10,630 nucleotides of DNA from a virus. Both the position numbers and the translations under genes were made by a program. This document shows, piece by piece, positions 1 to 10,630 of the stretch. The number at the start of each line of letters is the position of its first letter. Within the stretch, counting starts at the first letter, position 1. The stretch lies in the UHGV virus genome UHGV-1746214; one strand, 5' to 3'. The notes under the pieces are model-generated. The model saw only the letters and a program-made list of their open reading frames with translations. It searched no databases and had not been told where the DNA came from.

Positions 1-15
1 ACGCTCTTCCGATCT
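1..15. other. Illumina adapter remnant (ACGCTCTTCCGATCT)
   Basis: Matches the 3' end of the TruSeq universal adapter as I recall it; the window's last 11 nt are the start of its reverse complement. Confidence 0.85.
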
Positions 16-51
16 CCCGCCAGCGGCGGGTGGGTAAAATCATTAACGACC

Positions 52-396
52 TCAGGCTATTACCTGAAATTCAAGCGTGGCTCTGCTCAGACGGGAATCA
101 GGATCATAACCCTGAGTTTTAGAAATAACGGAGGGTGCAAGTTGCCTTACCGCATCAAGCGCCTGCTCACGGATATCATCTGCGTCATCAGGTACTGTTG
201 CCCAGACATCGATCTGCACGGTAATTCTGGATTCAGCCTGACCATCAAGCACATCAGACGCAGTGTCAGACACCACAGAAAATACCAGCCATGGCGGAGA
301 TACCGCAGGCTTTCCCTCCGTCAGCGGGACCACATAAGGATAAACCTGTCCTCCGGCCAGTTGAGACAGCAGGGAATACAGTGTGGTCTCTCTCAT
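52..396 (-). CDS. Phage morphogenesis protein, DUF3168-like (tail completion/terminator candidate)
   Basis: 114-aa ORF, last gene of the head-tail joining cluster; start overlaps the upstream gene's stop (ATGA); N-terminal pattern resembles the DUF3168 family from memory. Confidence 0.55.
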   Translation of the reverse strand: MRETTLYSLLSQLAGGQVYPYVVPLTEGKPAVSPPWLVFSVVSDTASDVLDGQAESRITVQIDVWATVPDDADDIREQALDAVRQLAPSVISKTQGYDPDSRLSRATLEFQVIA

Positions 397-839
397 TTAC
401 TTAAGACCTCATCAATAGCCTGATTCATTCGCTGTATGGCAATCTGTGCTGCCAGTTCCTCTGTCGTATCGAAAGCCGGGCGAATGAACGGATGCGCGGG
501 CATGTTTATCGTTCCCAGCTCCACAAAGCGCCAGTAAAACGCATTTCGGGGATCGCTGGCTTTCATGCTGTTATCACTGTTTCCGGTTCGCAGGTTCCGT
601 CCACGAATGTGGACACCCGAGATAATTTCCCCCCGACGCTTTGAACGCTGAGTGAGAACAACCACATTTTTCTTCAGTTTCCCGGTTCGCTCCGGCGCAC
701 GTTCAACAACTGCATCCCGCATAACTTCAGCACCGGCACGGGTGGCATCGCGCAGTACCTTATTGTTTTCTGCCCTGCTGAGCGTCTCCAGATCCCGTGC
801 AATATCCGCCAGACCTGAAAAATCAAGACTGAAATCCAT
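393..839 (-). CDS. HK97 gp10-family head-tail joining protein
   Basis: 148-aa ORF (ATG at 839; the ORF track starts one codon earlier at GTG 842); N-terminus MDFSLDFSGLADIARDLETL is typical of the gp10 family; position downstream of the head-tail adaptor. Confidence 0.6.
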   Translation of the reverse strand: MDFSLDFSGLADIARDLETLSRAENNKVLRDATRAGAEVMRDAVVERAPERTGKLKKNVVVLTQRSKRRGEIISGVHIRGRNLRTGNSDNSMKASDPRNAFYWRFVELGTINMPAHPFIRPAFDTTEELAAQIAIQRMNQAIDEVLSK

Positions 840-1177
840 CACACATTCCCCTTCTGAGAACAGAGTATCTCAAGCCGGGTGGCACGAGCATCCGGTATCG
901 GCGGACCGTCTATACTCAGAATCGCGCCTTTGAATGCACCAGTCAGCACTTTCAGACATGAAGTTGCTGTCACATCTCGCCGGAATCTCATCCAGACCCT
1001 CACTGTAGCCTGAGCAGTTTCTGCGCCTCCGGATATTCTCTCCCTGCCACTGATCCCCTTAACTTCTGCCCATATGGTTGCCCCCTCCGTCATTATTTCC
1101 ACAGGGTGCCCTGACGGAGACCGAACGGTGGTGGCATTCAGAATAACCACGCGATCACGTAATCTTCCTGCCTGCAT
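839..1177 (-). CDS. Head-tail adaptor / head closure protein (Phage_H_T_join-like)
   Basis: 112-aa ORF beginning MQAGRLRDRVVIL, resembling the conserved N-terminus of head-tail joining proteins; synteny after the gp6-like connector. Confidence 0.65.
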   Translation of the reverse strand: MQAGRLRDRVVILNATTVRSPSGHPVEIMTEGATIWAEVKGISGRERISGGAETAQATVRVWMRFRRDVTATSCLKVLTGAFKGAILSIDGPPIPDARATRLEILCSQKGNV

Positions 1178-1186
1178 GAAATCCTC

Positions 1187-1492
1187 CTATGTTCCGGGAT
1201 GAAACCGATACATTCGGAGTCCGGTATAGAAAAAATCAGGCACAGCATCCTGCATTTCCCTGTTCTCGTACCAGTAGCCAACCAGTTGCATAAGACGCAG
1301 CTTTATCAGCGGTGTTATTACAAGCCCGGTCGTATCCTGCTCAGGAACAGTTTCATCGTGAAGTGTCCGGTTTAAAAACTTTTCAGCCTCTTCCCTGGCA
1401 GCAGCCAGATACATCATAAGAAGAGCATTCTCCTGTTCATTGTCATCATCAATCCGGCACTGAACACGAAGCTCTTCCAGAGTGGGCATCAT
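1187..1492 (-). CDS. gp6-like head-tail connector protein
   Basis: 101-aa ORF; size and position two genes after the major capsid gene; start overlaps the upstream stop (ATGA). Confidence 0.6.
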   Translation of the reverse strand: MMPTLEELRVQCRIDDDNEQENALLMMYLAAAREEAEKFLNRTLHDETVPEQDTTGLVITPLIKLRLMQLVGYWYENREMQDAVPDFFYTGLRMYRFHPGT

Positions 1493-1692
1493 TTGGGCAA
1501 CCTCTGTGAATGCTGTTTTTTAGACTTATCAGCCCCCCGCGCAACAGGTGTTCTCTTATCAGAGACAATTCCAGCTGCAGTGGCAATTTCGCGTACCCGT
1601 TCGGGTAATTCTTTATCTTCATACTCACCGGCCCGAATGATCTCAACACGCATACCGTCCGGTGACCATTTCAGATCTTGTTTCAGGATCAT
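1489..1692 (-). CDS. Hypothetical small phage protein (67 aa)
   Basis: ORF with an AGGTGA Shine-Dalgarno about 8 nt upstream of the ATG; sits between the capsid gene hairpin and the connector gene; no recognisable motif. Confidence 0.4.
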   Translation of the reverse strand: MILKQDLKWSPDGMRVEIIRAGEYEDKELPERVREIATAAGIVSDKRTPVARGADKSKKQHSQRLPK

Positions 1693-1714
1693 GATTCTTT
1701 CACCTGTCAGAACA

Positions 1715-1734
1715 GGGGCGCACTTCTGCGCCCC
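1715..1734 (-). terminator. Stem-loop just downstream of the major capsid gene (attenuator/terminator candidate)
   Basis: Perfect 8-bp GC-rich stem (GGGGCGCA / TGCGCCCC) with a 4-nt loop, 8 nt after the capsid stop codon on the minus strand; the downstream U-tract is weak. Confidence 0.35.
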
Positions 1735-1742
1735 CTGAATGA

Positions 1743-2948
1743 TTACGCCGCTGCAATCTTCAGCAGTTTGATGGCCTGCGAATCGACCAGCATGCCGCCA
1801 GTGCGCTTGGTGGTATAAAAACCGACAAACGGTTTATTGGTGTACGGGTCACGCAGAATGCGGGTACCGATACGGTCAACGATGGTGTAACCCCGTTTGA
1901 AGTTACCAAATGCAATGGCTTTCGCATCAGCGGCAATATCCGGCATCTGTTCGTTTTCAGCGATACCGTAACCCGCCAGAGAGGACGGCTGCCCCAGCTC
2001 CAGCCCCGGACGCCACAGATAGTTACCCTCGGTGTCTTTCAGCAGACGAATGGCAAACAGGCTGTTGTTGTTCATCATGAACTTCGCGCCAGTGCGGTGT
2101 GCCTTACGCAGCGTGTAAATCAGTTTGATAATGGCGTCTGCGGTCACCGCAGTCGCTTCGCCGGATACAATATGCTGAAGTTTGCCGAACGCCCGGACCT
2201 TGTCGTTTTCATCAGTGGACTCATACGCCAGGAACCCTTTCGGCTTCTTGGTACCATCGCCGGTGGTAAAGGCAATTTCTTCCTGTTCGGCAAATTCGGT
2301 TGCCAGCTCGCTGTTGATCCAGGCCTCCACGTTGAAAAAGGCATCATCCAGCATTTTCTGGGTGGCCTGCGGGTTACCGTAGATTTCCCCCATGAAAGGT
2401 TCAATCAGCCCCAGTTTTGAGGTGGCAGTCTGGGAGCGCGCGTCAGTCTCGCCAACCCATCCGGAAGCCGTGCCGCCCAGATTCACCAGTTTTTTGTAGT
2501 CGGAACCGCCAACGGTGATCACCGTGGCTTCCTGGCGCATCACCACTTCATCTTTCAGCAGGGTCAGAATGTTGCGATCCAGCGCTTCCGGCACGGCATA
2601 GCCGCCGTCTTCATCGGTGCCCACCTGTAATGCCTTGCGCTCCAGATCGCGCAGCCCATCTTCACGGCCTTTACGCAGGAAGCCCACAAACGCTTCTTTA
2701 TGCTCGGTGGCCAGTTTATTTTGCGTACCACCTGCCGGACGTTTCAGCTCAATCAGCTCTTTTTCAAGGTCGCTTTTGAGATTTTCCAGCTCGCTGAGTT
2801 TTCCGTTCAGGGTTTCCACCTGCCCGGCAAGTTTGCCTTTTTCCTGCTCAATCGCCTCAACGCGCTTGTCGTTCTTTGCTTTGAAGTCGTCAAACTTCTG
2901 CTGCAGCTCCTGCGCGACCTGTTCGACATCTTTAATATCTACCGCCAT
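1743..2948 (-). CDS. Major capsid protein, HK97 family
   Basis: 401-aa ORF directly downstream of the prohead protease; N-terminal roughly 100 aa is a charged coiled-coil like the HK97 delta domain; AGGAG Shine-Dalgarno 7 nt upstream. Confidence 0.9.
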   Translation of the reverse strand: MAVDIKDVEQVAQELQQKFDDFKAKNDKRVEAIEQEKGKLAGQVETLNGKLSELENLKSDLEKELIELKRPAGGTQNKLATEHKEAFVGFLRKGREDGLRDLERKALQVGTDEDGGYAVPEALDRNILTLLKDEVVMRQEATVITVGGSDYKKLVNLGGTASGWVGETDARSQTATSKLGLIEPFMGEIYGNPQATQKMLDDAFFNVEAWINSELATEFAEQEEIAFTTGDGTKKPKGFLAYESTDENDKVRAFGKLQHIVSGEATAVTADAIIKLIYTLRKAHRTGAKFMMNNNSLFAIRLLKDTEGNYLWRPGLELGQPSSLAGYGIAENEQMPDIAADAKAIAFGNFKRGYTIVDRIGTRILRDPYTNKPFVGFYTTKRTGGMLVDSQAIKLLKIAAA

Positions 2949-2962
2949 CGTATTTCTCCTGA

Positions 2963-3613
2963 TTAGAAGTTCAGATTTTTCAGTGCATTCAGTGCAAAGC
3001 CCACATCCTCAGCGTCGCGCAGGGACAGTGCGCCATAGCCCCCGGCCATGAATGCTTTGGCCTGGGTACGGGAGAGTCCGACATCACGCAGGACTCTTTC
3101 GATTTTTTTCTGTTCGGGGATTTCCCCGCGGGCCAGTGCGTTCTTGACGTCGCTGATCCGCGCCTCGTCGTTAGACGGGAATGTCACCAGACTGACTTCC
3201 CAGAGGTCGATTTCTTTCAGCAGAAAGGCTTCTTTCGTCCGGTCGTATTCCCAGTCCTTCAGGACGTACCCAATAGAAAGGCCGGTTAACGAACCGGCCT
3301 TCATGTGTGCATGTGCGCGTTTTGCCAGGGGATCATCATCAATGAGCAACCGCCCCCTGACGTAAAGCCCGACATCGTCTTCCTTCATTTCGGTGTAAAC
3401 ACCGATGGGCTCATCCATGCGGTGCTGCCAGAGCAGCGCAGGTAACGCTTTTCTGTCACTCCACGCCCGCAGGGAAGTGGCAAATGCCCCGGACATCACC
3501 ACATCATCGTGGCTGTCCTTTACACCAAAGACGGAGCCATACCCTTCAAACTCACCGGAGTCACTGACAGATTTCAGACTCAGCGGTACATCAAGACGTT
3601 GTTTCGTCTGCAT
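2963..3613 (-). CDS. Prohead protease, HK97 family
   Basis: ORF between portal and capsid genes; start placed at the internal ATG at 3613 (good AAGGA Shine-Dalgarno) rather than the track's 3649 (no Shine-Dalgarno); overlaps the portal 3' end. Confidence 0.85.
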   Translation of the reverse strand: MQTKQRLDVPLSLKSVSDSGEFEGYGSVFGVKDSHDDVVMSGAFATSLRAWSDRKALPALLWQHRMDEPIGVYTEMKEDDVGLYVRGRLLIDDDPLAKRAHAHMKAGSLTGLSIGYVLKDWEYDRTKEAFLLKEIDLWEVSLVTFPSNDEARISDVKNALARGEIPEQKKIERVLRDVGLSRTQAKAFMAGGYGALSLRDAEDVGFALNALKNLNF

Positions 3614-4832
3614 TGGCGTTATCCTTCTGCTTACCGGCTTTACTGCCATCGGAGGGTTTCGTGGTCATGTTCATCGGTGTGAGATAGACATCACCACCGG
3701 GACGCGGATTCATATCTTCCAGGTCGCGGCAGTCATTGGGAGAGTAAATTCCCCAGTTGATCCCGGTGGCGTAGGCTTCAAAACGGGACTTCATATCCCC
3801 GCGCAGTAACGCCCCGGCGTTAAATTTGGCGTAATAAGCGCCCTGCTTACTTTTTCGTACCAGTCCGGTGTTGATCCGCTGTTCGATGCGGGTCAGATAC
3901 GGCACCAGTGAATAGTTGATAAATCCCAGCCCCAGCTCTTCGATATTGTTGAAGGTGGCGCGATCGGTGTTCTGCACCATGTGCAATGGCACCCGGAACA
4001 GACGACAGATTTCTTCAAGCTGAAACTTGCGGGTTTCCAGGAACTGGCTGTCCTCGGCGTTCAGCGCCATCGACTTCCAGTCCAGCCCCATCTCAAGGAT
4101 CATCGGGCGGTGAGCATTACCAAGCCCGGTATGACGCTCCTCAAAATCTTTCTTCAGACGCTCATAAGCCTGATCCGACAGCGTCTGCTCTGTACGCAAC
4201 ACACCGGACGTCACCGCACCATTGCTGAACAGTCTGGCCCCGTGCTCTTCGGTCGCAGCTGCCAGCGATATTGCCTCGCGGGCATAGGCGACGGGATTCA
4301 GTCCCACCAGACCGTCCAGCGTCAGCGTGCGTACATGCCAGATATCCTCCTGGCTCAGTACATCCGTGGAACCGTCCGGGAATGTGACCTGATAGACCGG
4401 CTCCCAGCTACTGTTAAGCTTCGGTACCACACAGCCGGGATCGACGGGCAGCAGTTCAGCCACTTCGCCAAATGCTTTCACTTTGTAGGCGTAAAAGTTT
4501 CCCCGCAGGCACAGACAGGTGACCACCAGCTCCCAGAACTCCTGCGGCGTCATATAGCCATTGGGATGCGTGGAGATCAGCTTATGCAGACGTTCGCCGG
4601 TGGCTCTCTGTTTCAGGTTGCCGTTCAGGTGATACAGATTGCAGGGCAACATCCCGACCGACTCTGCCAGCACCCTGACGCAGGAAAAAACCGCCGTCAG
4701 TCGCATGGCCCGCTGGCTGCTGATCTGCTTTCCGGTATAGGTGTCATATGACAGCCCGATAGCATCCGCCAGCTCTGCTGGCGTGGTCACCGGCGCGTCA
4801 CTTTTTCGTTGAAATAATCCCGAAAAGAACAC
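3591..4832 (-). CDS. Portal protein, HK97 family
   Basis: 413-aa ORF immediately downstream of the terminase region; GTG start preceded by GGAGGT at 6-nt spacing; size and position match HK97-type portals. Confidence 0.9.
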   Translation of the reverse strand: MFFSGLFQRKSDAPVTTPAELADAIGLSYDTYTGKQISSQRAMRLTAVFSCVRVLAESVGMLPCNLYHLNGNLKQRATGERLHKLISTHPNGYMTPQEFWELVVTCLCLRGNFYAYKVKAFGEVAELLPVDPGCVVPKLNSSWEPVYQVTFPDGSTDVLSQEDIWHVRTLTLDGLVGLNPVAYAREAISLAAATEEHGARLFSNGAVTSGVLRTEQTLSDQAYERLKKDFEERHTGLGNAHRPMILEMGLDWKSMALNAEDSQFLETRKFQLEEICRLFRVPLHMVQNTDRATFNNIEELGLGFINYSLVPYLTRIEQRINTGLVRKSKQGAYYAKFNAGALLRGDMKSRFEAYATGINWGIYSPNDCRDLEDMNPRPGGDVYLTPMNMTTKPSDGSKAGKQKDNANADETTS

Positions 4833-5014
4833 TATTTACCTCCGCCGACAGACGGCTGTGTACGGTCGAGATATCGCGCCACCAGCCACGACCAGAACAG
4901 GCACAGCACCCCGGCAACAACAAAACCCGCCGGGGGATAAATCAGCCAGACACCATACGCCAGCAAAAACGCCCCCAGCACGCCCACCAGTGGCGCGAGA
5001 ATTATCAGAAACAT
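4832..5014 (-). CDS. Small membrane protein (60 aa, two predicted transmembrane helices)
   Basis: ORF with a GAGGT Shine-Dalgarno, wedged between the terminase large subunit stop and the portal start (its TAG overlaps the portal GTG); two strongly hydrophobic segments. Confidence 0.5.
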
Positions 5015-5025
5015 AATGACCTCGG

Positions 5026-6561
5026 TTAAAGCGAGCGGATGCCCACGCTGACCAGACGTTCAGACAGATCCGGCTCCGGTTCACCACCATTGACCAGCAT
5101 CCGGCTCATTGCTGTAAACATCGCAACAGGGCCGTCGATTTTGGCTTCCAGCGTGGATTTATTCGGGAAGATATTGTCGTTTTTGTCCGGTTTTACCGTA
5201 ACGTTAGACATCATCCAGTTCATGACCGGATGATTGCTGTGATGGAAACGCCCGGCATAGACCAGTGATTCCGTTTCCTTCATGGCCTCTGACAGATTAC
5301 GAACCGTCTGCGGAACCTCCACCAGCGGTATCCCTTCTTCGGCCAGTGCCAGGCTGAACTGCATCGCGCTCCACGGGTCAAATCCCAGTTCCCTGAGGTT
5401 TTCACCACCAATCCATTCCAGTAAGTCACTTTTTATCTGAGCATGATCGATAACATCACCATCCGTCAGAATCAGCTTCTCCATTTCTGCCCACTTCCGG
5501 TAAAGTTCTGCCTGCTGCCGCGAGCATCGTTCCAGCCGTCCTTCCGGAAGCCAGAATTTAAAATCGGCATGAACATGCCCGTTATCCGTTCGCCAGAGTT
5601 TTGCCGCCGCACAGATATCAATCTTATGAGCAAGGTCGACGCCGACCCACATGGGGTACGTTTTCAGCTCATGTCGTGGGGCAATGTATTCGCACTTCTC
5701 CCACTTAATCATGTCCATCCAGGCAGACTCTGCTGTTACCCACACATTCATGTGTTTCGTGAAAAAATTCACCCGCGCAGAGACCTGCTCCTTCGCTTTT
5801 TTCGCCAGGCGACGCAGATCATCCCAGCGTTTACAGATGCCCAGGCCAGGATTCGCTTTCTGCCAGACCGTTTCATCAAACGGATCATCTCCCTCATCGA
5901 GCGTGTAAATGATCGCAAAGTAGGAGTCGTCTTTTACCGCGCCCTCCACGTCGCTGTTATAGCCACGCAATACCTTGATGGCGTAATCACGCTGCTCGTA
6001 ACAAATCCCTTCCTTGTTAAACCCTGCCGTGGTGATACCAAATAAAAGGGACTGCAGACGGGCACCGGTCGCCGTTTCCAGAACGTCCCACACATCACGG
6101 GTTTTATGTGCATGCAGCTCATCAATAATGGCGCAGTGGATGTTCAGACCATCCAGGTTGTTTGCATCCGAGGAAAGCGGTTCAAATTTTGATGCGCTCT
6201 GCTCCTGGTAAATCGCCAGCTTGTTGAAATCAAACAATCTCCCGAGTGTCGACCGGGCTTTTCTGACCATATTTTTAGCGTCTTCAAACACGATTCTGGC
6301 CTGGTCACGCGTGGTTGCGGCTGAATACACCTCAGCCCCGCCTTCACCATCTGCCCCCGTCATATACAGACCGATACCCGATGACAGGGTTGATTTTGCG
6401 TTTTTACGGGCAACTTCGTTGTAGGCCGTCCGGAACCGGCGCACCATCACCGGGCGTCCGCTGCCATCGCTGCGCATGACAACTTCCCCGGTCTCTTCAT
6501 TGACCAGCGGAATGACAAAACCAAAAATATTAATGAGGATAAATACATGCCAGTCCATCAA
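5026..6561 (-). CDS. Terminase large subunit (Terminase_1-like), main 511-codon portion downstream of an in-frame amber codon
   Basis: Contains a P-loop-like VARKNAKST segment and a Walker-B-like [11 protein letters not shown]; located between the small terminase subunit and portal; the same frame continues upstream through a TAG at 6571-6573 into the 70-codon N-terminal piece. Confidence 0.9.
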
Positions 6562-6570
6562 CTCAATAGG

Positions 6571-6783
6571 CTAGCCTGCCAGCGCCCCTTTTACATGAGG
6601 CACAAATTTGTAGAAATTCAGGATGTGCTGCGCACGGGGTTCACTGAAATAAATCCCCCGCTTCTCGCCGTACTTCAGATCATCAAGAAAACGCTGGCAG
6701 GCCAGACGGACAAATTCGCCAGCAACAATTTCTCCTGCAACAACACGTTCGGCGTAGCGGATCCCGTCAGCCACTTTTGCCAT
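6571..6783 (-). CDS. Terminase large subunit N-terminal fragment (70 codons ending at in-frame TAG)
   Basis: ATG overlaps the small-subunit stop (ATGA); the LACQRFLDDL and PHVKGALAG segments resemble N-termini of large terminase subunits from memory; in frame with 5026..6561. Confidence 0.7.
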   Translation of the reverse strand: MAKVADGIRYAERVVAGEIVAGEFVRLACQRFLDDLKYGEKRGIYFSEPRAQHILNFYKFVPHVKGALAG

Positions 6784-7265
6784 CAGTCTCTCGCTTTTAA
6801 AAGCTCCGCCAGCGGATCGACATCATCCGGTCCGGCGATATTTACTTTAGCCCGGCTTGCCGGTGACATGCCAAACTCTGCAAGCATTGCCCGGATCCGC
6901 TTCCAGGCATCCGCTTTCATTGCCGCCGCGGGGTGCGCCTTAATCAGCACATCACCGTTCTGTGTTTTCGTGCGGTAGGTATACCCCTCAACATCGAGTG
7001 TTTCGCAGTGATGCCGGTATTCGGTGTAGGCTTCCACCAGTAACTCGAGTGCACGCGCATCAAGCTGAGAAATGATCCCTTCCGCATTCAGCTCTTCCGC
7101 CATTCGCCTGAACCAGTACTTCCCCTGCGCCCCTAAATGTTGCGGAATTTTAGGGAGACCTTTTTCATCCTTTTTGGCGGTTTTTTTGGGGGCTTTAACT
7201 GGGCGCTTTGAGGGGTTACCTCGTATCAAATGCAGGCGTGGCGGGGTTTTCGGAGGTCCTGACAT
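6783..7265 (-). CDS. Terminase small subunit (P27 family-like)
   Basis: 160-aa ORF with a Lys/Pro-rich N-terminus and a C-terminal EFGMSPASRAK motif typical of P27-family small terminases; immediately upstream of and overlapping the large subunit. Confidence 0.85.
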   Translation of the reverse strand: MSGPPKTPPRLHLIRGNPSKRPVKAPKKTAKKDEKGLPKIPQHLGAQGKYWFRRMAEELNAEGIISQLDARALELLVEAYTEYRHHCETLDVEGYTYRTKTQNGDVLIKAHPAAAMKADAWKRIRAMLAEFGMSPASRAKVNIAGPDDVDPLAELLKARD

Positions 7266-7329
7266 AATCGGTTTTACCTATCAATAGTTTGTTAACATTC
7301 CCAAAAAAAGTTTTCGAACCTGCGGCGAT

Positions 7330-7405
7330 GTGAGGAAGGGTCAGGCGGCGGTCCTGAAGCGCGAAAGGGGTCAGGGATTTGATCCCCCCTCCCCCCTGAA
7401 GATGG
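7330..7405. other. Candidate cos / packaging-site region (GC-rich motif cluster)
   Basis: Intergenic region upstream of the small terminase gene; GGCGGCGGTCCT at 7344-7355 resembles the lambda cosN core as I recall it; CCTGAAG is repeated at 7353-7359 and 7395-7401, flanking an imperfect G-run/C-run palindrome. Confidence 0.25.
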
Positions 7406-7505
7406 CAGCAAGAAACCACGCAAAAAGAAGATACTGGTCATCCATCAGGATGCTCAGCATGATGTCTTCAGTTAATCTCAATAAATAAACGATGGAGTCT
7501 AATAA

Positions 7506-8021
7506 ATGGATAAAACCAGAAAATATGACAGAGCCTTACAACTTGAAATCCTCAACGCCCTTATAGATTGTGCTCCTAACTCTTTAAACAAGGCACAGGA
7601 ACAAGACCTCATTGAGAAGTTTGACAGCTATGATCACTTTGTGGCGTGCATGTTATACCTTGAAATGCATGGTCTCGTTTCTACACCCTTCGTACGCAGC
7701 GATACCATGGATGGCGTTGATTTTATCTTCAATGCCCCGTACTGCAACATTACAGAGAAAGGAATTGATTTTCTTCTTGATGATGGCGGCTTAAGTGCGA
7801 TCCTTAAAGTTCAAACCGTTCGGTTACACAGTGACACGATTGTTGCCCTTGAGGATATAATCCGTGTCGCAAATATACCTGAAGATCAGAAGAAGGGATT
7901 GATTTCAAAACTCCGAGAGCTTCCGGGAGACGCCATAAAACATTTGACCCTACAGTTACTGACTCAGGGGGTTCTGAATCTACCGAACGCACTTCGACTA
8001 ATTCAAACAACCCTCCAGTAG
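7506..8021 (+). CDS. Hypothetical protein (171 aa), moron-like accessory gene on the opposite strand
   Basis: Only convincing plus-strand ORF; GGAG Shine-Dalgarno 8 nt upstream of the ATG; visibly AT-rich compared with flanking phage genes (about 38% GC counted over its first 61 nt); followed by a hairpin; no recognised motif. Confidence 0.7.
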   Translation: MDKTRKYDRALQLEILNALIDCAPNSLNKAQEQDLIEKFDSYDHFVACMLYLEMHGLVSTPFVRSDTMDGVDFIFNAPYCNITEKGIDFLLDDGGLSAILKVQTVRLHSDTIVALEDIIRVANIPEDQKKGLISKLRELPGDAIKHLTLQLLTQGVLNLPNALRLIQTTLQ

Positions 8022-8037
8022 GGCTAAACTCATCTGA

Positions 8038-8063
8038 GGGGCGAATTAACTCAAATTTGCCCC
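8038..8063 (+). terminator. Hairpin downstream of the plus-strand ORF (possible intrinsic terminator)
   Basis: GGGGCGAA / TTTGCCCC stem (8 bp including one G-U pair) with a 10-nt loop, 17 nt after the TAG stop; a TTTTT run follows about 9 nt downstream. Confidence 0.4.
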
Positions 8064-8156
8064 ATCCCAGCTTTTTACTTAAAACAACCCAAAATTCCTT
8101 CCGGGTATCTGCATGAATGTAGAAACTATTTTTATGCATTACAGCAGTGAATATTA

Positions 8157-8507
8157 TCATCGAATACGTTCTCTTGCTGTCTTCGCTCTGTGGCATTCCC
8201 AGCATAACGACTCAAGATTGGAATCATCATCAGTACCACCATGAGCTTTTGGGATAATGTGGTCTACAGTCCTGGCCTCAACAGCCCGCCCATTGCGCAG
8301 GCAGTTCTGACACAGATGATTATCACGCTTCAATACGCGCGCACGTATGGTATCCCATTTCGAACCATAGCCACGCTGGTGGCGGCTCAGTCCGCGTTGA
8401 TGCTTTACCCATCCTTCGCCACGATGTTTATCACAGTAACCAGAACTGTCTGTGGTTGTACCTGCACATCCACGCTTACGGCAGGCGCGTGGGGTTTGTG
8501 ATGGCAT
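8157..8507 (-). CDS. HNH endonuclease (terminase-associated type)
   Basis: 116-aa ORF with Cys-rich N-terminus and the HNH core HIIPKAHGGTDDDSNLESLCWECHRAKT; located upstream of the terminase genes as in HK97-like phages. Confidence 0.9.
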   Translation of the reverse strand: MPSQTPRACRKRGCAGTTTDSSGYCDKHRGEGWVKHQRGLSRHQRGYGSKWDTIRARVLKRDNHLCQNCLRNGRAVEARTVDHIIPKAHGGTDDDSNLESLCWECHRAKTARERIR

Positions 8508-8527: not shown

Positions 8528-8824
8528 TTAAAACGCTTCTCCCTCGGGGCGGATACAGATCGCACCCAGCCCCGCTGCCACGGCGTACTGATTATGTTCA
8601 TCGACAAGCTTTATTGTGCTATCAAGTAACTCACGACAGCGATTTACATTCGTTTCAATGCTCAACACCAGTGAATAAGCACCATTCAACTCCTCACCTG
8701 ATAAAAACGGAGAATCAGCAGAAACAATTTCCGATTTTATTTTTCGCAGAGCGCAAAGATTTTCTTCAATGCGTTTTCTCAGGATCACACAACGCCCAAT
8801 CGCTTCATAGTTTCGCTCAGACAT
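8528..8824 (-). CDS. Hypothetical protein (98 aa from ATG at 8824)
   Basis: ORF between Rz and HNH; AGGTAGGTG Shine-Dalgarno upstream of the ATG at 8824 (the ORF track extends to a TTG at 8842); lower GC than flanks; no recognisable motif. Confidence 0.55.
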   Translation of the reverse strand: MSERNYEAIGRCVILRKRIEENLCALRKIKSEIVSADSPFLSGEELNGAYSLVLSIETNVNRCRELLDSTIKLVDEHNQYAVAAGLGAICIRPEGEAF

Positions 8825-8849
8825 TTCACCTACCTGTTTCAAAAGTACT

Positions 8850-9314
8850 CTACTTAATGCACTGATCGCGGATATATTCCTGCAATCCCCTGATCATTTT
8901 TTCGCTGGTTGCGATTCGCTCCCTGAGGACGAAATAATCCCGCTGAGCGGCGTCAGTAAGTCCGGGGCTGGCTGCATCATCCACGCCGGAGGAGGTGGAG
9001 GCTTCACGCACGGATGGACAGACGGCTCTGATGCGCAACCGACGACGACCAGCGGCAATATCATTACGCAGAGCATCATTTTCAGCTTTTGCATCAGCTA
9101 ATTCCTTCGAGTATTTTTCATCGAGTGCAGCAACATCACGATGGCGCTGCTGCAGGTCAGTAATAGTGGCGTTCGCCTGGCTGAGTTTTGTCTTCACATC
9201 ATCTCGCTGCTCTTTGTAGGTAATGGCGTTACTACGGTAATAGCTGGTGGACTGCCACAACGCACCGCAGGCCACCAGCAGCGCAATGATCGCGCCATGA
9301 AGAACATGATTCAT
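8850..9314 (-). CDS. Rz: i-spanin (Rz-like)
   Basis: 154-aa ORF with an N-terminal transmembrane segment and a charged coiled-coil region; contains an embedded lipoprotein ORF in another frame; downstream of the endolysin. Confidence 0.85.
   Translation of the reverse strand: MNHVLHGAIIALLVACGALWQSTSYYRSNAITYKEQRDDVKTKLSQANATITDLQQRHRDVAALDEKYSKELADAKAENDALRNDIAAGRRRLRIRAVCPSVREASTSSGVDDAASPGLTDAAQRDYFVLRERIATSEKMIRGLQEYIRDQCIK
8894..9094 (-). CDS. Rz1: o-spanin lipoprotein (Rz1-like), embedded within Rz
   Basis: 66-aa ORF wholly inside Rz in a different frame; signal peptide with lipobox VVGC and a proline-rich mature region (PPPPP). Confidence 0.8.
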   Translation of the reverse strand: MQKLKMMLCVMILPLVVVGCASEPSVHPCVKPPPPPAWMMQPAPDLLTPLSGIISSSGSESQPAKK

Positions 9315-9315
9315 A

Positions 9316-9429
9316 TCACCACCAGCGGATTACCCAGATCAGAACAGCAATGGACACAATACGAATAGCAAAGGTCGCTGCTCTTGTTAAATCCAGGCTG
9401 GCTGGCGTTTCCACTTCAATGCCTTTCAT
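9316..9429 (-). CDS. Small hydrophobic peptide ORF (37 aa), not in the supplied ORF track
   Basis: ATG at 9429-9427 with GAGG about 11 nt upstream; encodes MKGIEVETPASLDLTRAATFAIRIVSIAVLIWVIRWW; its TGA stop lies 1 nt before the Rz ATG. Confidence 0.3.
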   Translation of the reverse strand: MKGIEVETPASLDLTRAATFAIRIVSIAVLIWVIRWW

Positions 9430-9525
9430 AATGGACAACCTCAGAAAGAATTTTTTATACTTCCTCACAGGTAAAGCACCTCCCTACCCATAATTTCTCC
9501 CTTGCCTTACTCAAGGTCAGAAACA

Positions 9526-9559
9526 CAAAGCCCCGATTGCTCCAACAACCGGGGCTTTG
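9526..9559 (-). terminator. Strong hairpin immediately downstream of the endolysin gene
   Basis: Perfect 10-bp stem (CAAAGCCCCG / CGGGGCTTTG) with a 14-nt loop, 6 nt after the endolysin stop; T-rich sequence on both sides. Confidence 0.4.
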
Positions 9560-9565
9560 CTTTAC

Positions 9566-9949
9566 TTATCGTTTCAACTGGAAGTGAGGCCCGTCTTTCA
9601 GGCTGGCCCAGTCCCCGCCCCATTCGATGGCGATCCCCAGTTCTGCGGCAGCCTGCTTAAATGCCTGTGCGATTTTCTCGTACAGAAACCAATCCCATGA
9701 CACCTGACTGCCAACGTAAGCCACAACATCAACCGCATCACCTGTCAGGTGACGGCTGTTCATGGTCTGGCTTTTTCCTTCAGCAACCAGCTGTTTCTGG
9801 CGATACTTGCTGCGCAGGCCTTCCGTAATACCGAAATCAACCTCCGTCAGCTCCAGAGCACGGCGAACTACAGCAACCAGCTGTGGTTTGACACCCTCCA
9901 GATTTTTCTCGCTCCGACGACTGAATCTGAATTTACCCGGCATACTCAC
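9566..9949 (-). CDS. Endolysin, peptidase M15 (VanY-like) family
   Basis: 127-aa ORF with the metallopeptidase motif SRHLTGDAVD (SxHxxGxAxD) and the distal WGGDW...DGPHFQL His region; sits within the lysis cassette. Confidence 0.85.
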   Translation of the reverse strand: MSMPGKFRFSRRSEKNLEGVKPQLVAVVRRALELTEVDFGITEGLRSKYRQKQLVAEGKSQTMNSRHLTGDAVDVVAYVGSQVSWDWFLYEKIAQAFKQAAAELGIAIEWGGDWASLKDGPHFQLKR

Positions 9950-10619: not shown

Positions 10620-10630
10620 AGATCGGAAGA
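10620..10630. other. Illumina adapter remnant (AGATCGGAAGA)
   Basis: Matches the start of the standard adapter read-through sequence AGATCGGAAGAGC as I recall it; reverse complement of the window's first 15 nt. Confidence 0.8.

Follow-up and report, generated by a model that had tools for sequence, protein, structure and literature searches.

The viral genome UHGV-1746214 was analysed as a stretch of 10,630 nucleotides (nt), which we refer to as the window. According to the listing of its open reading frames (ORFs) and to family scans, the minus strand of the window represents a phage late region, and the host element is a phiP27/HK97-like Escherichia coli prophage. The spacer between the genes for an M15-family endolysin and the i-spanin Rz is 247 nt long and contains a small ORF of 37 codons (Table 1). 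Judged by sequence comparison, this ORF is a genuine conserved gene and not a chance ORF. It belongs to an uncharacterised, already catalogued small-protein family on an unusual terminator-led cassette.

An earlier note on this DNA had placed the ORF between an ATG at 9429 and a TGA at 9318-9316, and our reading of the sequence confirmed this placement. The same holds for the single nucleotide (t, 9315) that separates the TGA from the Rz start codon at 9314, for a plausible Shine-Dalgarno (SD) sequence (GAGG, 9442-9439) located 9 nt upstream of the ATG, and for the hydrophobic C-terminal half of the peptide, which terminates in RWW. Two further statements stood only in part. The ORF was described as unannotated, which is correct for the ORF track available to the earlier reader but not for public records, where PGAP lists exactly these 37 amino acids (aa) as hypothetical protein WP_096977162.1 in two prophages with 100% identity, those of E. 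coli KFu019 and C012. Likewise, the 37-codon ORF exists as read, but as a gene model it is probably truncated at its 5′ end, the more likely start being a GTG at 9468 that gives 50 codons. Identity to the two prophages was 100% for window positions 1-8185 (C012) and for the stretch 9250-9620 (KFu019). The common O157 variant of the small protein is WP_000675931.1, annotated as ECs_1094 in prophage Sp4 of E. coli O157 Sakai, and the ORF is also annotated in GER2 and in phiSTEC1575-Stx2k.

Table 1. Positions of the small ORF, its cassette elements and the surrounding lysis genes in the window.
Feature	Position	Strand	Basis or detail
Small ORF, 37 codons, MKGIEVETPASLDLTRAATFAIRIVSIAVLIWVIRWW	9316-9429	minus	ATG 9429-9427, TGA 9318-9316
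Preferred gene model, 50 codons (MRKYKKFFLRLSI followed by the 37 aa)	9316-9468	minus	GTG 9468 start
GAGG, SD-like, possible internal start	9439-9442	minus	9 nt upstream of ATG 9429
Putative upstream ORF (uORF) of 8 codons, MGREVLYL	9465-9491	minus	Sequence reading; ATG 9491, TGA 9467-9465
Conserved leader TTTCTGACCTTGAGTAAGGCAAGGGAGAA, ending in an SD	9493-9524	minus	Alignment across contexts
G+C-rich hairpin with A-tract 5′ and U-tract 3′; 5′ boundary of the cassette	9525-9560	minus	Fold and covariation
Antisense sigma-70-like site TGGACA-18-TATACT, facing the hairpin	9432-9461	plus	Promoter scan
Phage_holin_8 gene	10603-10211	minus	Pfam match
Phage_holin_3_7 gene	10236-9946	minus	Pfam match
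M15-family endolysin, 127 aa, upstream of the cassette	9949-9566	minus	Peptidase_M15_4, E = 7.7e-12
Rz (i-spanin), 154 aa	9314-8850	minus	PF03245, E = 1.2e-46
Rz1 (o-spanin lipoprotein), embedded in Rz in the +1 frame	9094-8894	minus	PF06085, E = 1.6e-17; phrog_3198

Comparison of related viral copies provides the main evidence that the small ORF is a gene. A scan of IMG/VR with a back-translated pattern recovered 120 loci, which together with loci from other searches and the window itself gave 126 copies, and the 37-codon ORF is intact in 121 of these. The earlier note had proposed to compare synonymous with nonsynonymous changes in relatives, and this comparison points to purifying selection: among the 19 intact unique haplotypes, the ratio of nonsynonymous to synonymous polymorphism (pN/pS) was 0.11 (pN 0.043, pS 0.40), with values of 0.02 for codons 1-15 and 0.19 for codons 16-37, the region outside the constraint of the search pattern. 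Variable sites were distributed over codon positions 1, 2 and 3 as 12, 4 and 25, and the two main clades are separated by 18.5 synonymous and 5.5 nonsynonymous differences. Alignment of five copies that were found by DNA similarity, without the pattern, agrees with this picture. The note had also offered a chance ORF in a non-coding spacer as an alternative. The length of the ORF is by itself uninformative, because 34 ORFs of at least 30 aa occur in 3.1 kb of the window, and reading frames of this size are therefore common; moreover, the peptide falls into no Pfam or NCBIfam family. Nevertheless, the codon-position pattern and the low pN/pS, the integrity of nearly all copies, the match to a PHROG family and the wide conservation, with 35 representative clusters recovered by a profile search of 1.84 billion proteins, make a chance origin extremely improbable, and we reject it.

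The element is widespread among sequenced genomes of E. coli, and both Shiga-toxin prophages and further lambdoid prophages commonly carry it. Megablast with the 371-nt region gave a match in 1164 of 5426 complete genomes, mostly to the part comprising the hairpin and leader, and the full module of the type found in the window (type 1, at least 80% query coverage) was present in at least 589 of them. Among genome contigs, a scan with the back-translated pattern gave no match, and a scan with the leader gave five (one from Citrobacter braakii and four metagenome-derived). In two IMG/VR loci (L022 and one other) a 1-nt deletion fuses the small ORF in frame to Rz, with a predicted product of 183 aa, which may be a natural mutant or a sequencing error.

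Several observations indicate that the coding region probably starts at GTG 9468, giving a protein of 50 aa. A start codon 13 codons upstream of the ATG, without an in-frame stop, is found in all 118 intact relatives (GTG in 116 and ATG in two), and in the window it is preceded by a second SD sequence (GGGAGG, 9484-9479) 10 nt away. Against phrog_4493, the 50-aa form scores 80.3 bits (E = 1.4e-22, profile positions 1-54 of 56) and the 37-aa form 53.9 bits (E = 2.4e-14, positions 14-54), the N-terminal extension thus being worth 26 extra bits; phrog_1115 is matched by the 50-aa form with E = 3.4e-09. The basic extension (KYKRFFLRL) is kept as K-Y-K-R-[FI]-[FL]-L-R-L-[ST] in subfamilies at 37-54% identity and also, as in MTVYRKTFRLRISM and MKLYRKFFRMRLSM, in remote relatives that the profile search of 1.84 billion representatives recovered; the remote copies of the extension, at about 40% identity, use different nucleotides and contain an in-frame codon indel. 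Initiation at ATG 9429 may yield the 37-aa form as well, so that both isoforms would occur, because the internal methionine with its own SD is kept in most subfamilies. It is not kept in all of them, and the methionine is missing in some remote members.

The description of the product as a small membrane peptide is supported. The Kyte-Doolittle maximum over 19 residues is 1.97 (residues 30-48 of the 50-aa form), the C-terminal helix is modelled by AlphaFold2 with a predicted local distance difference test score (pLDDT) of about 90, and some database sources name the protein "putative transmembrane protein". Since the charge flanking the transmembrane segment is +4 on the N-terminal and 0 on the C-terminal side, an N-in, C-terminally anchored topology is predicted. 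AlphaFold2, run with an alignment of 18 sequences, placed helices at residues 3-15 and 22-49 with a mean pLDDT of 72.7, the value of about 90 applying to the last 20 residues. The predicted parts are a basic amphipathic N-terminal helix, a strongly conserved G-x-E-x3-P linker and a single C-terminal transmembrane helix that ends in RWW; only these three residues are predicted to emerge on the opposite side of the membrane. Columns G16, E18 and P22, which are invariant, all lie in the extramembrane linker, and this concentration of the strongest conservation points to a specific partner rather than to generic membrane damage.

The family is small, with only 35 representative clusters at E ≤ 1e-3, and its hosts include Escherichia, Shigella, Salmonella, Klebsiella, Serratia, Enterobacter, Citrobacter and Yersinia; phages of Actinobacillus and Pseudomonas carry a sister type. 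The closest catalogue entries, PHROG 4493, 1115 and 3246, are listed with "unknown function", resemble the small protein in size and in the presence of the N-terminal extension, and are without a Pfam, NCBIfam, PADLOC or PDB relative. In line with this, sequence searches of Pfam, NCBIfam, PADLOC and PDB with several family members and with a profile gave no match for the small protein, and because a Pfam match is lacking it is not linked to any described family of small membrane proteins.

The gene travels on a portable cassette of about 215-245 bp, which consists of a bidirectional terminator-like hairpin, a leader with an SD sequence and the ORF. Homology boundaries are sharp, extending from the A-tract before the hairpin to the stop codon, and between unrelated flanks hairpin and leader retain an identity of about 88-90%. 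Both were found in front of different peptide subfamilies and behind various upstream genes, namely those for a SAR-type (signal-arrest-release) lysozyme, an M15 peptidase, a 93-aa ORF and baseplate protein V. In its features the hairpin resembles an intrinsic terminator that would work in both directions: in 18 diverse copies it has 13 consensus pairs, six of them with compensatory double changes, and remote members carry a different hairpin sequence at the same position. The leader is predicted to fold as a small hairpin that contains the first SD. In the present subfamily, an insertion of about 26 nt separates the leader SD from the GTG and creates the 8-codon uORF and the second SD; in sister subfamilies the family ORF begins 1-5 nt after the same leader. 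The uORF is preceded by an SD sequence (GGGAG, 9501-9497), and its stop codon overlaps GTG 9468 (GTGA); we infer that it is translated.

Scanning with the leader recovered several downstream peptide subfamilies, including the 50-aa type, a 57-60-aa type (PHROG 1115), a 45-aa type ending in QIRWW (PHROG 6632) and a 48-aa type. In profile-profile comparison with hhalign, the first two of these groups (types 1 and 2) were linked to the last two (the type of SPN3UB and Rac-SA53) only through the last 17 columns (probability 92%), and for this reason we regard the two groups as cassette-sharing relatives and not as one proven family. An unannotated 45-aa ORF ending in QIRWW lies between R and Rz in the Shiga toxin 1 (Stx1) phage H-19B (locus L228, 2001-2135; positions 17551-17685 of the record), and it occupies this position, likewise unannotated, in Salmonella phage SPN3UB (L130, 1576-1713) and in many records of Stx-converting phages. 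Its upstream hairpin and leader are those of the cassette described here. Tandem cassettes were also observed (L231, 240-740; L159), in which each ORF ends in AIRWW and has its own terminator-like hairpin upstream.

The genomic contexts of 213 loci were classified. Type-1 copies have the SAR-type lysozyme, the M15 peptidase or the 93-aa ORF as upstream neighbour, and Rz follows downstream in 51 loci, its place being taken in 67 of 121 by a 60-aa lipobox protein (PHROG 7528, "unknown function"). The downstream gene could be identified in 116 type-1 loci, and each time a single nucleotide separates its start codon from the stop codon of the small ORF (TGA-N-ATG). Most copies of the other types are flanked by lysozyme and Rz, or are followed by another small transmembrane peptide (PHROG 4906) with Rz next in line. 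This unrelated peptide of 43-48 aa is located directly upstream of Rz in other prophages (L131, 1764-1895; L126, 3112-3258, Sakai ECs_5732) and follows in some cases a 60-aa relative of the small ORF and in others an antirepressor gene. In phiSTEC1575-Stx2k, tblastn revealed no Rz or Rz1 homologue genome-wide; here the small ORF followed by the 60-aa lipoprotein (L002, 2655-2837), coupled by TGA-N-ATG, fills the spanin slot. The idea that the two proteins form a miniature two-component spanin was rejected, given the C-terminal transmembrane domain (TMD) of the small protein with only three residues beyond it and a mature lipoprotein of about 30 aa. The Qin prophage of E. coli K-12 has no gap between rrrQ and rzpQ.

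These features suggest how the gene might be expressed. No sigma-70-like site was found on the sense strand in 9400-9720, even at 8/12 matches, and because a terminator-like hairpin stands in front of the gene, expression would be confined to the late phase: the ORF would be made only from late transcripts that read through the hairpin. Translation could then proceed as a relay from the leader SD to the 8-codon uORF, through the GTGA overlap to the ORF, and through TGA-t-ATG to Rz, the terminal RWW-stop codons TGGTGGTGA resembling an SD for Rz. The cassette would have reached late operons by recombination, usually at a site precisely between the endolysin and spanin genes. The best-supported description of the product is thus that of a late-expressed, C-terminally anchored accessory protein of the inner membrane, which appears most often coupled to the spanin genes. 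It might serve as a non-essential membrane factor of the late envelope-directed phase, for example by tuning lysis or spanin production, and it would probably act through a specific contact of its conserved linker, not as a pore-former or structural spanin subunit. To the whole of this explanation, a genuine late gene for a tiny inner-membrane protein on a portable cassette that acts as an accessory factor of the late envelope phase, we assign a probability of about one half. Its functional part, a role in lysis or at the envelope, we put somewhat short of even odds; a lysis role is plausible, and the proposal of the earlier note that the peptide is a lysis regulator or an extra membrane-disrupting component describes a possible function.

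A number of observations weigh against this explanation. The link to lysis is positional, and the family also occupies clusters of tail and baseplate genes as well as accessory-gene hot spots: the cassette follows the baseplate protein V gene in Rac-SA53 and SEN34, lies among the tail genes of Pseudomonas phage YMC11/02/R656 and of locus L159, and adjoins a tape-measure gene at a site where neighbouring genes encode HATPase_c_3, HSDR_N and VasI domains. In addition, about half of the type-1 copies precede the 60-aa lipoprotein and not Rz, and the cassette family is associated with two unrelated endolysin types. The tail and accessory contexts, the two endolysin types and the lipoprotein in place of Rz all weaken the reading as a lysis regulator or membrane-disrupting component. 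If the hairpin truly terminated transcription, polarity would be expected in the tail operons of cassette-bearing phages that do not antiterminate. With regard to the gene model, PGAP picks the 37-aa form, and gene callers are divided between the long and the short start; moreover, pS is threefold lower in the extension (0.14) than in the rest of the ORF (0.40), which implies that some of the constraint on the extension acts on the nucleotides and might stem from a non-coding role. Finally, our literature searches found no paper mentioning the small gene.

We compared the small protein with known lysis proteins. Like holins, it is small, has one predicted TMD and is encoded in a lysis cassette. 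Defining sequence features of holins are otherwise lacking: the C-terminal charged tail is absent and RWW follows directly after the TMD, and no Pfam or NCBIfam match was obtained at E ≤ 1. The lysis cassette already contains Phage_holin_8 and Phage_holin_3_7. The relation to a cognate holin that defines a dual-start antiholin was not found either, as BLASTP against both holins of the window gave no alignment at E ≤ 100. Dual-start holins and antiholins are known from the work of the Young laboratory, as in S105/S107 of lambda and S68/S71 of phage 21. These are small membrane proteins of lysis cassettes with two in-frame starts, each with its own SD, the longer form being more positively charged at the N-terminus. 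The present gene resembles them in layout, with two conserved candidate starts in frame, GTG 9468 (GGGAGG, 10 nt) and ATG 9429 (GAGG, 9 nt), of which the former would give the more positively charged N-terminus. It differs from dual-start holins in that its single TMD is C-terminal, its gene lies downstream of the endolysin and also occurs outside lysis cassettes, and its starts are 13 codons apart instead of 2-3.

The small ORF is the immediate, probably translationally coupled neighbour of Rz and Rz1. An i-spanin has an N-terminal TMD and a periplasmic coiled-coil of about 100 aa, whereas the TMD of the small protein is C-terminal; with three residues beyond this TMD, it cannot bridge the periplasm. 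Classification as an i-spanin was rejected on account of this TMD position and the lack of a PF03245 match, the true Rz and Rz1 being the next genes.

Three other explanations need to be weighed against an accessory factor of the envelope phase. According to the first of these, the translated ORF is a purely cis-acting leader that delivers ribosomes to the Rz start codon, and its peptide is functionless. This would account for the TGA-t-ATG spacing in every type-1 locus with an identifiable downstream gene, for the SD-like last codons and for the recurrence of RWW-stop in otherwise different subfamilies. The amino acids are, however, under purifying selection along the whole ORF and particularly in codons 1-15, the family is conserved down to about 40% identity, members exist without Rz downstream, and other C-terminal ends (ALKS, AIKQ) occur together with a separate strong SD for the next gene, so that we consider a functionless peptide very improbable. 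Mobility of the cassette fits a moron-type accessory gene that is unrelated to lysis and encodes a small inner-membrane protein directed at a host target, which might exclude the DNA of superinfecting phages or block a membrane function of the host, the gene being inserted in a permissive slot of the late operon. Copies between baseplate and tail genes, and beside the tape-measure gene with its defence-looking neighbours, speak for such a gene, and the slot between R and Rz also hosts unrelated inserts (the antirepressor and the phrog_4906 peptide). Furthermore, all carrier phages that we inspected are temperate or prophage-derived. HK97 gp15 is reportedly a small inner-membrane exclusion protein encoded by a moron among the tail genes (Cumby et al., 2012), and the present gene resembles morons of this kind as a small, portable single-gene insert among late genes that encodes a single-pass membrane protein. 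In the definition of Juhala et al. (2000), in the form quoted in PMC4104026, a moron is an independent transcription unit between operon genes, with its own promoter and a downstream terminator. The cassette does lie between late genes, in varied contexts, but a promoter was not found and its hairpin stands at the 5′ end, and we therefore rejected it as a classical moron. For the same reasons, the gene should be silent in the lysogen, where exclusion genes normally act. In addition, about 95% of the sampled loci lie at the endolysin/spanin junction with precise stop-start coupling, and PADLOC gave no match. Altogether, we regard an accessory gene unrelated to lysis as unlikely, if far from negligible.

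The remaining explanation invokes an antisense RNA that gates a toxin, comparable to type I toxin-antitoxin systems or to P22 sar/ant. Transcription would run from a constitutive promoter within the first codons (9432-9461, plus strand) to the bidirectional hairpin, and the resulting RNA of about 100 nt would pair with both SDs and the GTG, thereby silencing a toxic membrane peptide and, by coupling, Rz until late transcription overwhelms it. The antisense site is the sole one with at least 10/12 matches to a sigma-70 promoter on either strand of the whole window, and comparable antisense -10 elements were found at codons 2-5 in all subfamilies, for instance TGcTAAAAT and TGcTAATAT in the type of SPN3UB and Rac-SA53 and, in a remote member, TGcTATAAT. 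The 5′ A-tract of the hairpin is kept in 18 of 18 diverse copies, for which reason the hairpin would also terminate transcription on the plus strand. Moreover, the candidate RNA folds well (z = -6.1), and the synonymous sites of the N-terminal extension are unusually conserved. One precedent in prophages is hokW-sokW in Sakai Sp5 (PMC8621323). These points are offset by a control in which the same peptides were synonymously recoded: equal or better antisense promoters arose in 17-23% of cases (P = 0.17-0.23), and the -10 element alone gave a combined P of 0.09. Since the test was non-significant, we count the antisense promoter as present and give it no further evidential weight. As in type I toxins, the product is a hydrophobic peptide of less than about 60 aa (37 or 50 aa with one TMD). 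A sense promoter for the toxin mRNA, which a type I system needs, was nevertheless not found in 9400-9720 at 8/12 matches, and a terminator-like hairpin lies directly upstream; in addition, the strongly conserved extramembrane motif is unlike typical type I toxins.

Small genes controlled by cis-antisense RNAs are known from P22 sar/ant, hok/mok/sok and IS10 RNA-OUT. The cassette is similar in layout: a promoter-like antisense site lies just within the beginning of the coding region, a terminator-like structure follows after about 70-100 nt, and a transcript between them would cover the ribosome-binding site; moreover, the overlapping uORF would be coupled to the small ORF as mok is to hok. 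The cassette differs from these systems in that it has no promoter for a sense mRNA and that its antisense transcript is a predicted one. Searches of Rfam at the gathering threshold (whole window) and at an E-value threshold (9200-9700) yielded no family match and nothing meaningful; weak hits to sar, IsrM and isrL cover the terminator hairpin only, the sar hit reaching 21.5 bits against a threshold of 43 bits. No Hfq cross-linking peak was located at Sakai ECs_1094 among the 64 sites of Tree et al. (2014, Table S2). The prophage small RNA HnrS (EcOnc10-12) was ruled out as this element, as it maps downstream of Rz in Sakai Sp12. In view of all this, we think that an antisense-gated toxin is improbable. 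An even bolder proposal, that the cassette is a mobile RNA-gated lysis checkpoint in which the antisense RNA silences the tail-anchored membrane protein and, by way of the stop-start relay from uORF through ORF to Rz, holds back the spanins until late transcription, once antiterminated, overtakes it, is in our opinion a long shot. If true, lambdoid phages, those with Shiga toxin among them, would have a fourth regulated step in their holin-endolysin-spanin pathway, and the position of the same cassette before a lipoprotein gene in phages without Rz and Rz1 would be explained.

Some additional features of the prophage were recorded. Beyond Rz, the minus strand encodes a 104-aa ORF, an HNH endonuclease, a P27-type small terminase subunit and HK97-type head genes. 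The 104-aa ORF between Rz and the HNH endonuclease (8528-8842, minus) matches PHROG 4827 ("unknown function") with E = 9e-33 and falls into no Pfam family. A 171-aa ORF on the plus strand (7506-8021), flanked by the genes for the HNH endonuclease and the small terminase subunit, corresponds to the hypothetical protein WP_096977166.1 and looks like a moron. In E. coli C012, another terminator-like hairpin (L235, 1050-1085), with the sequence gggccgctggtggccc followed by tttttta, is located directly upstream of the ribosome-binding site of the first holin gene, which makes this the second late gene of the prophage with a hairpin in front. At the end of the window, positions 10620-10630 (agatcggaaga on the plus strand) mismatch the otherwise identical C012 prophage, which reads ttttttattt there. 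We take agatcggaaga to be the start of the Illumina adapter AGATCGGAAGAGC, and since it makes up the last 11 bases, the window end is probably a contig-end artefact.

Overall, our analysis has consequences for both the annotation and the biology of lambdoid phages. The 37-aa PGAP model is probably short by 13 N-terminal codons, and annotators should look for the cassette at R/Rz junctions. If the small gene is only a passenger, it would still illustrate neatly how a portable cassette headed by a terminator can mark a recombination joint in the late operons of lambdoid phages. The carriers include O157:H7 and many Stx1- and Stx2-converting phages. Because the small gene adjoins the spanin genes and is probably translationally linked to them, it could influence the timing and completeness of lysis, and for Stx phages altered lysis would mean altered toxin release.

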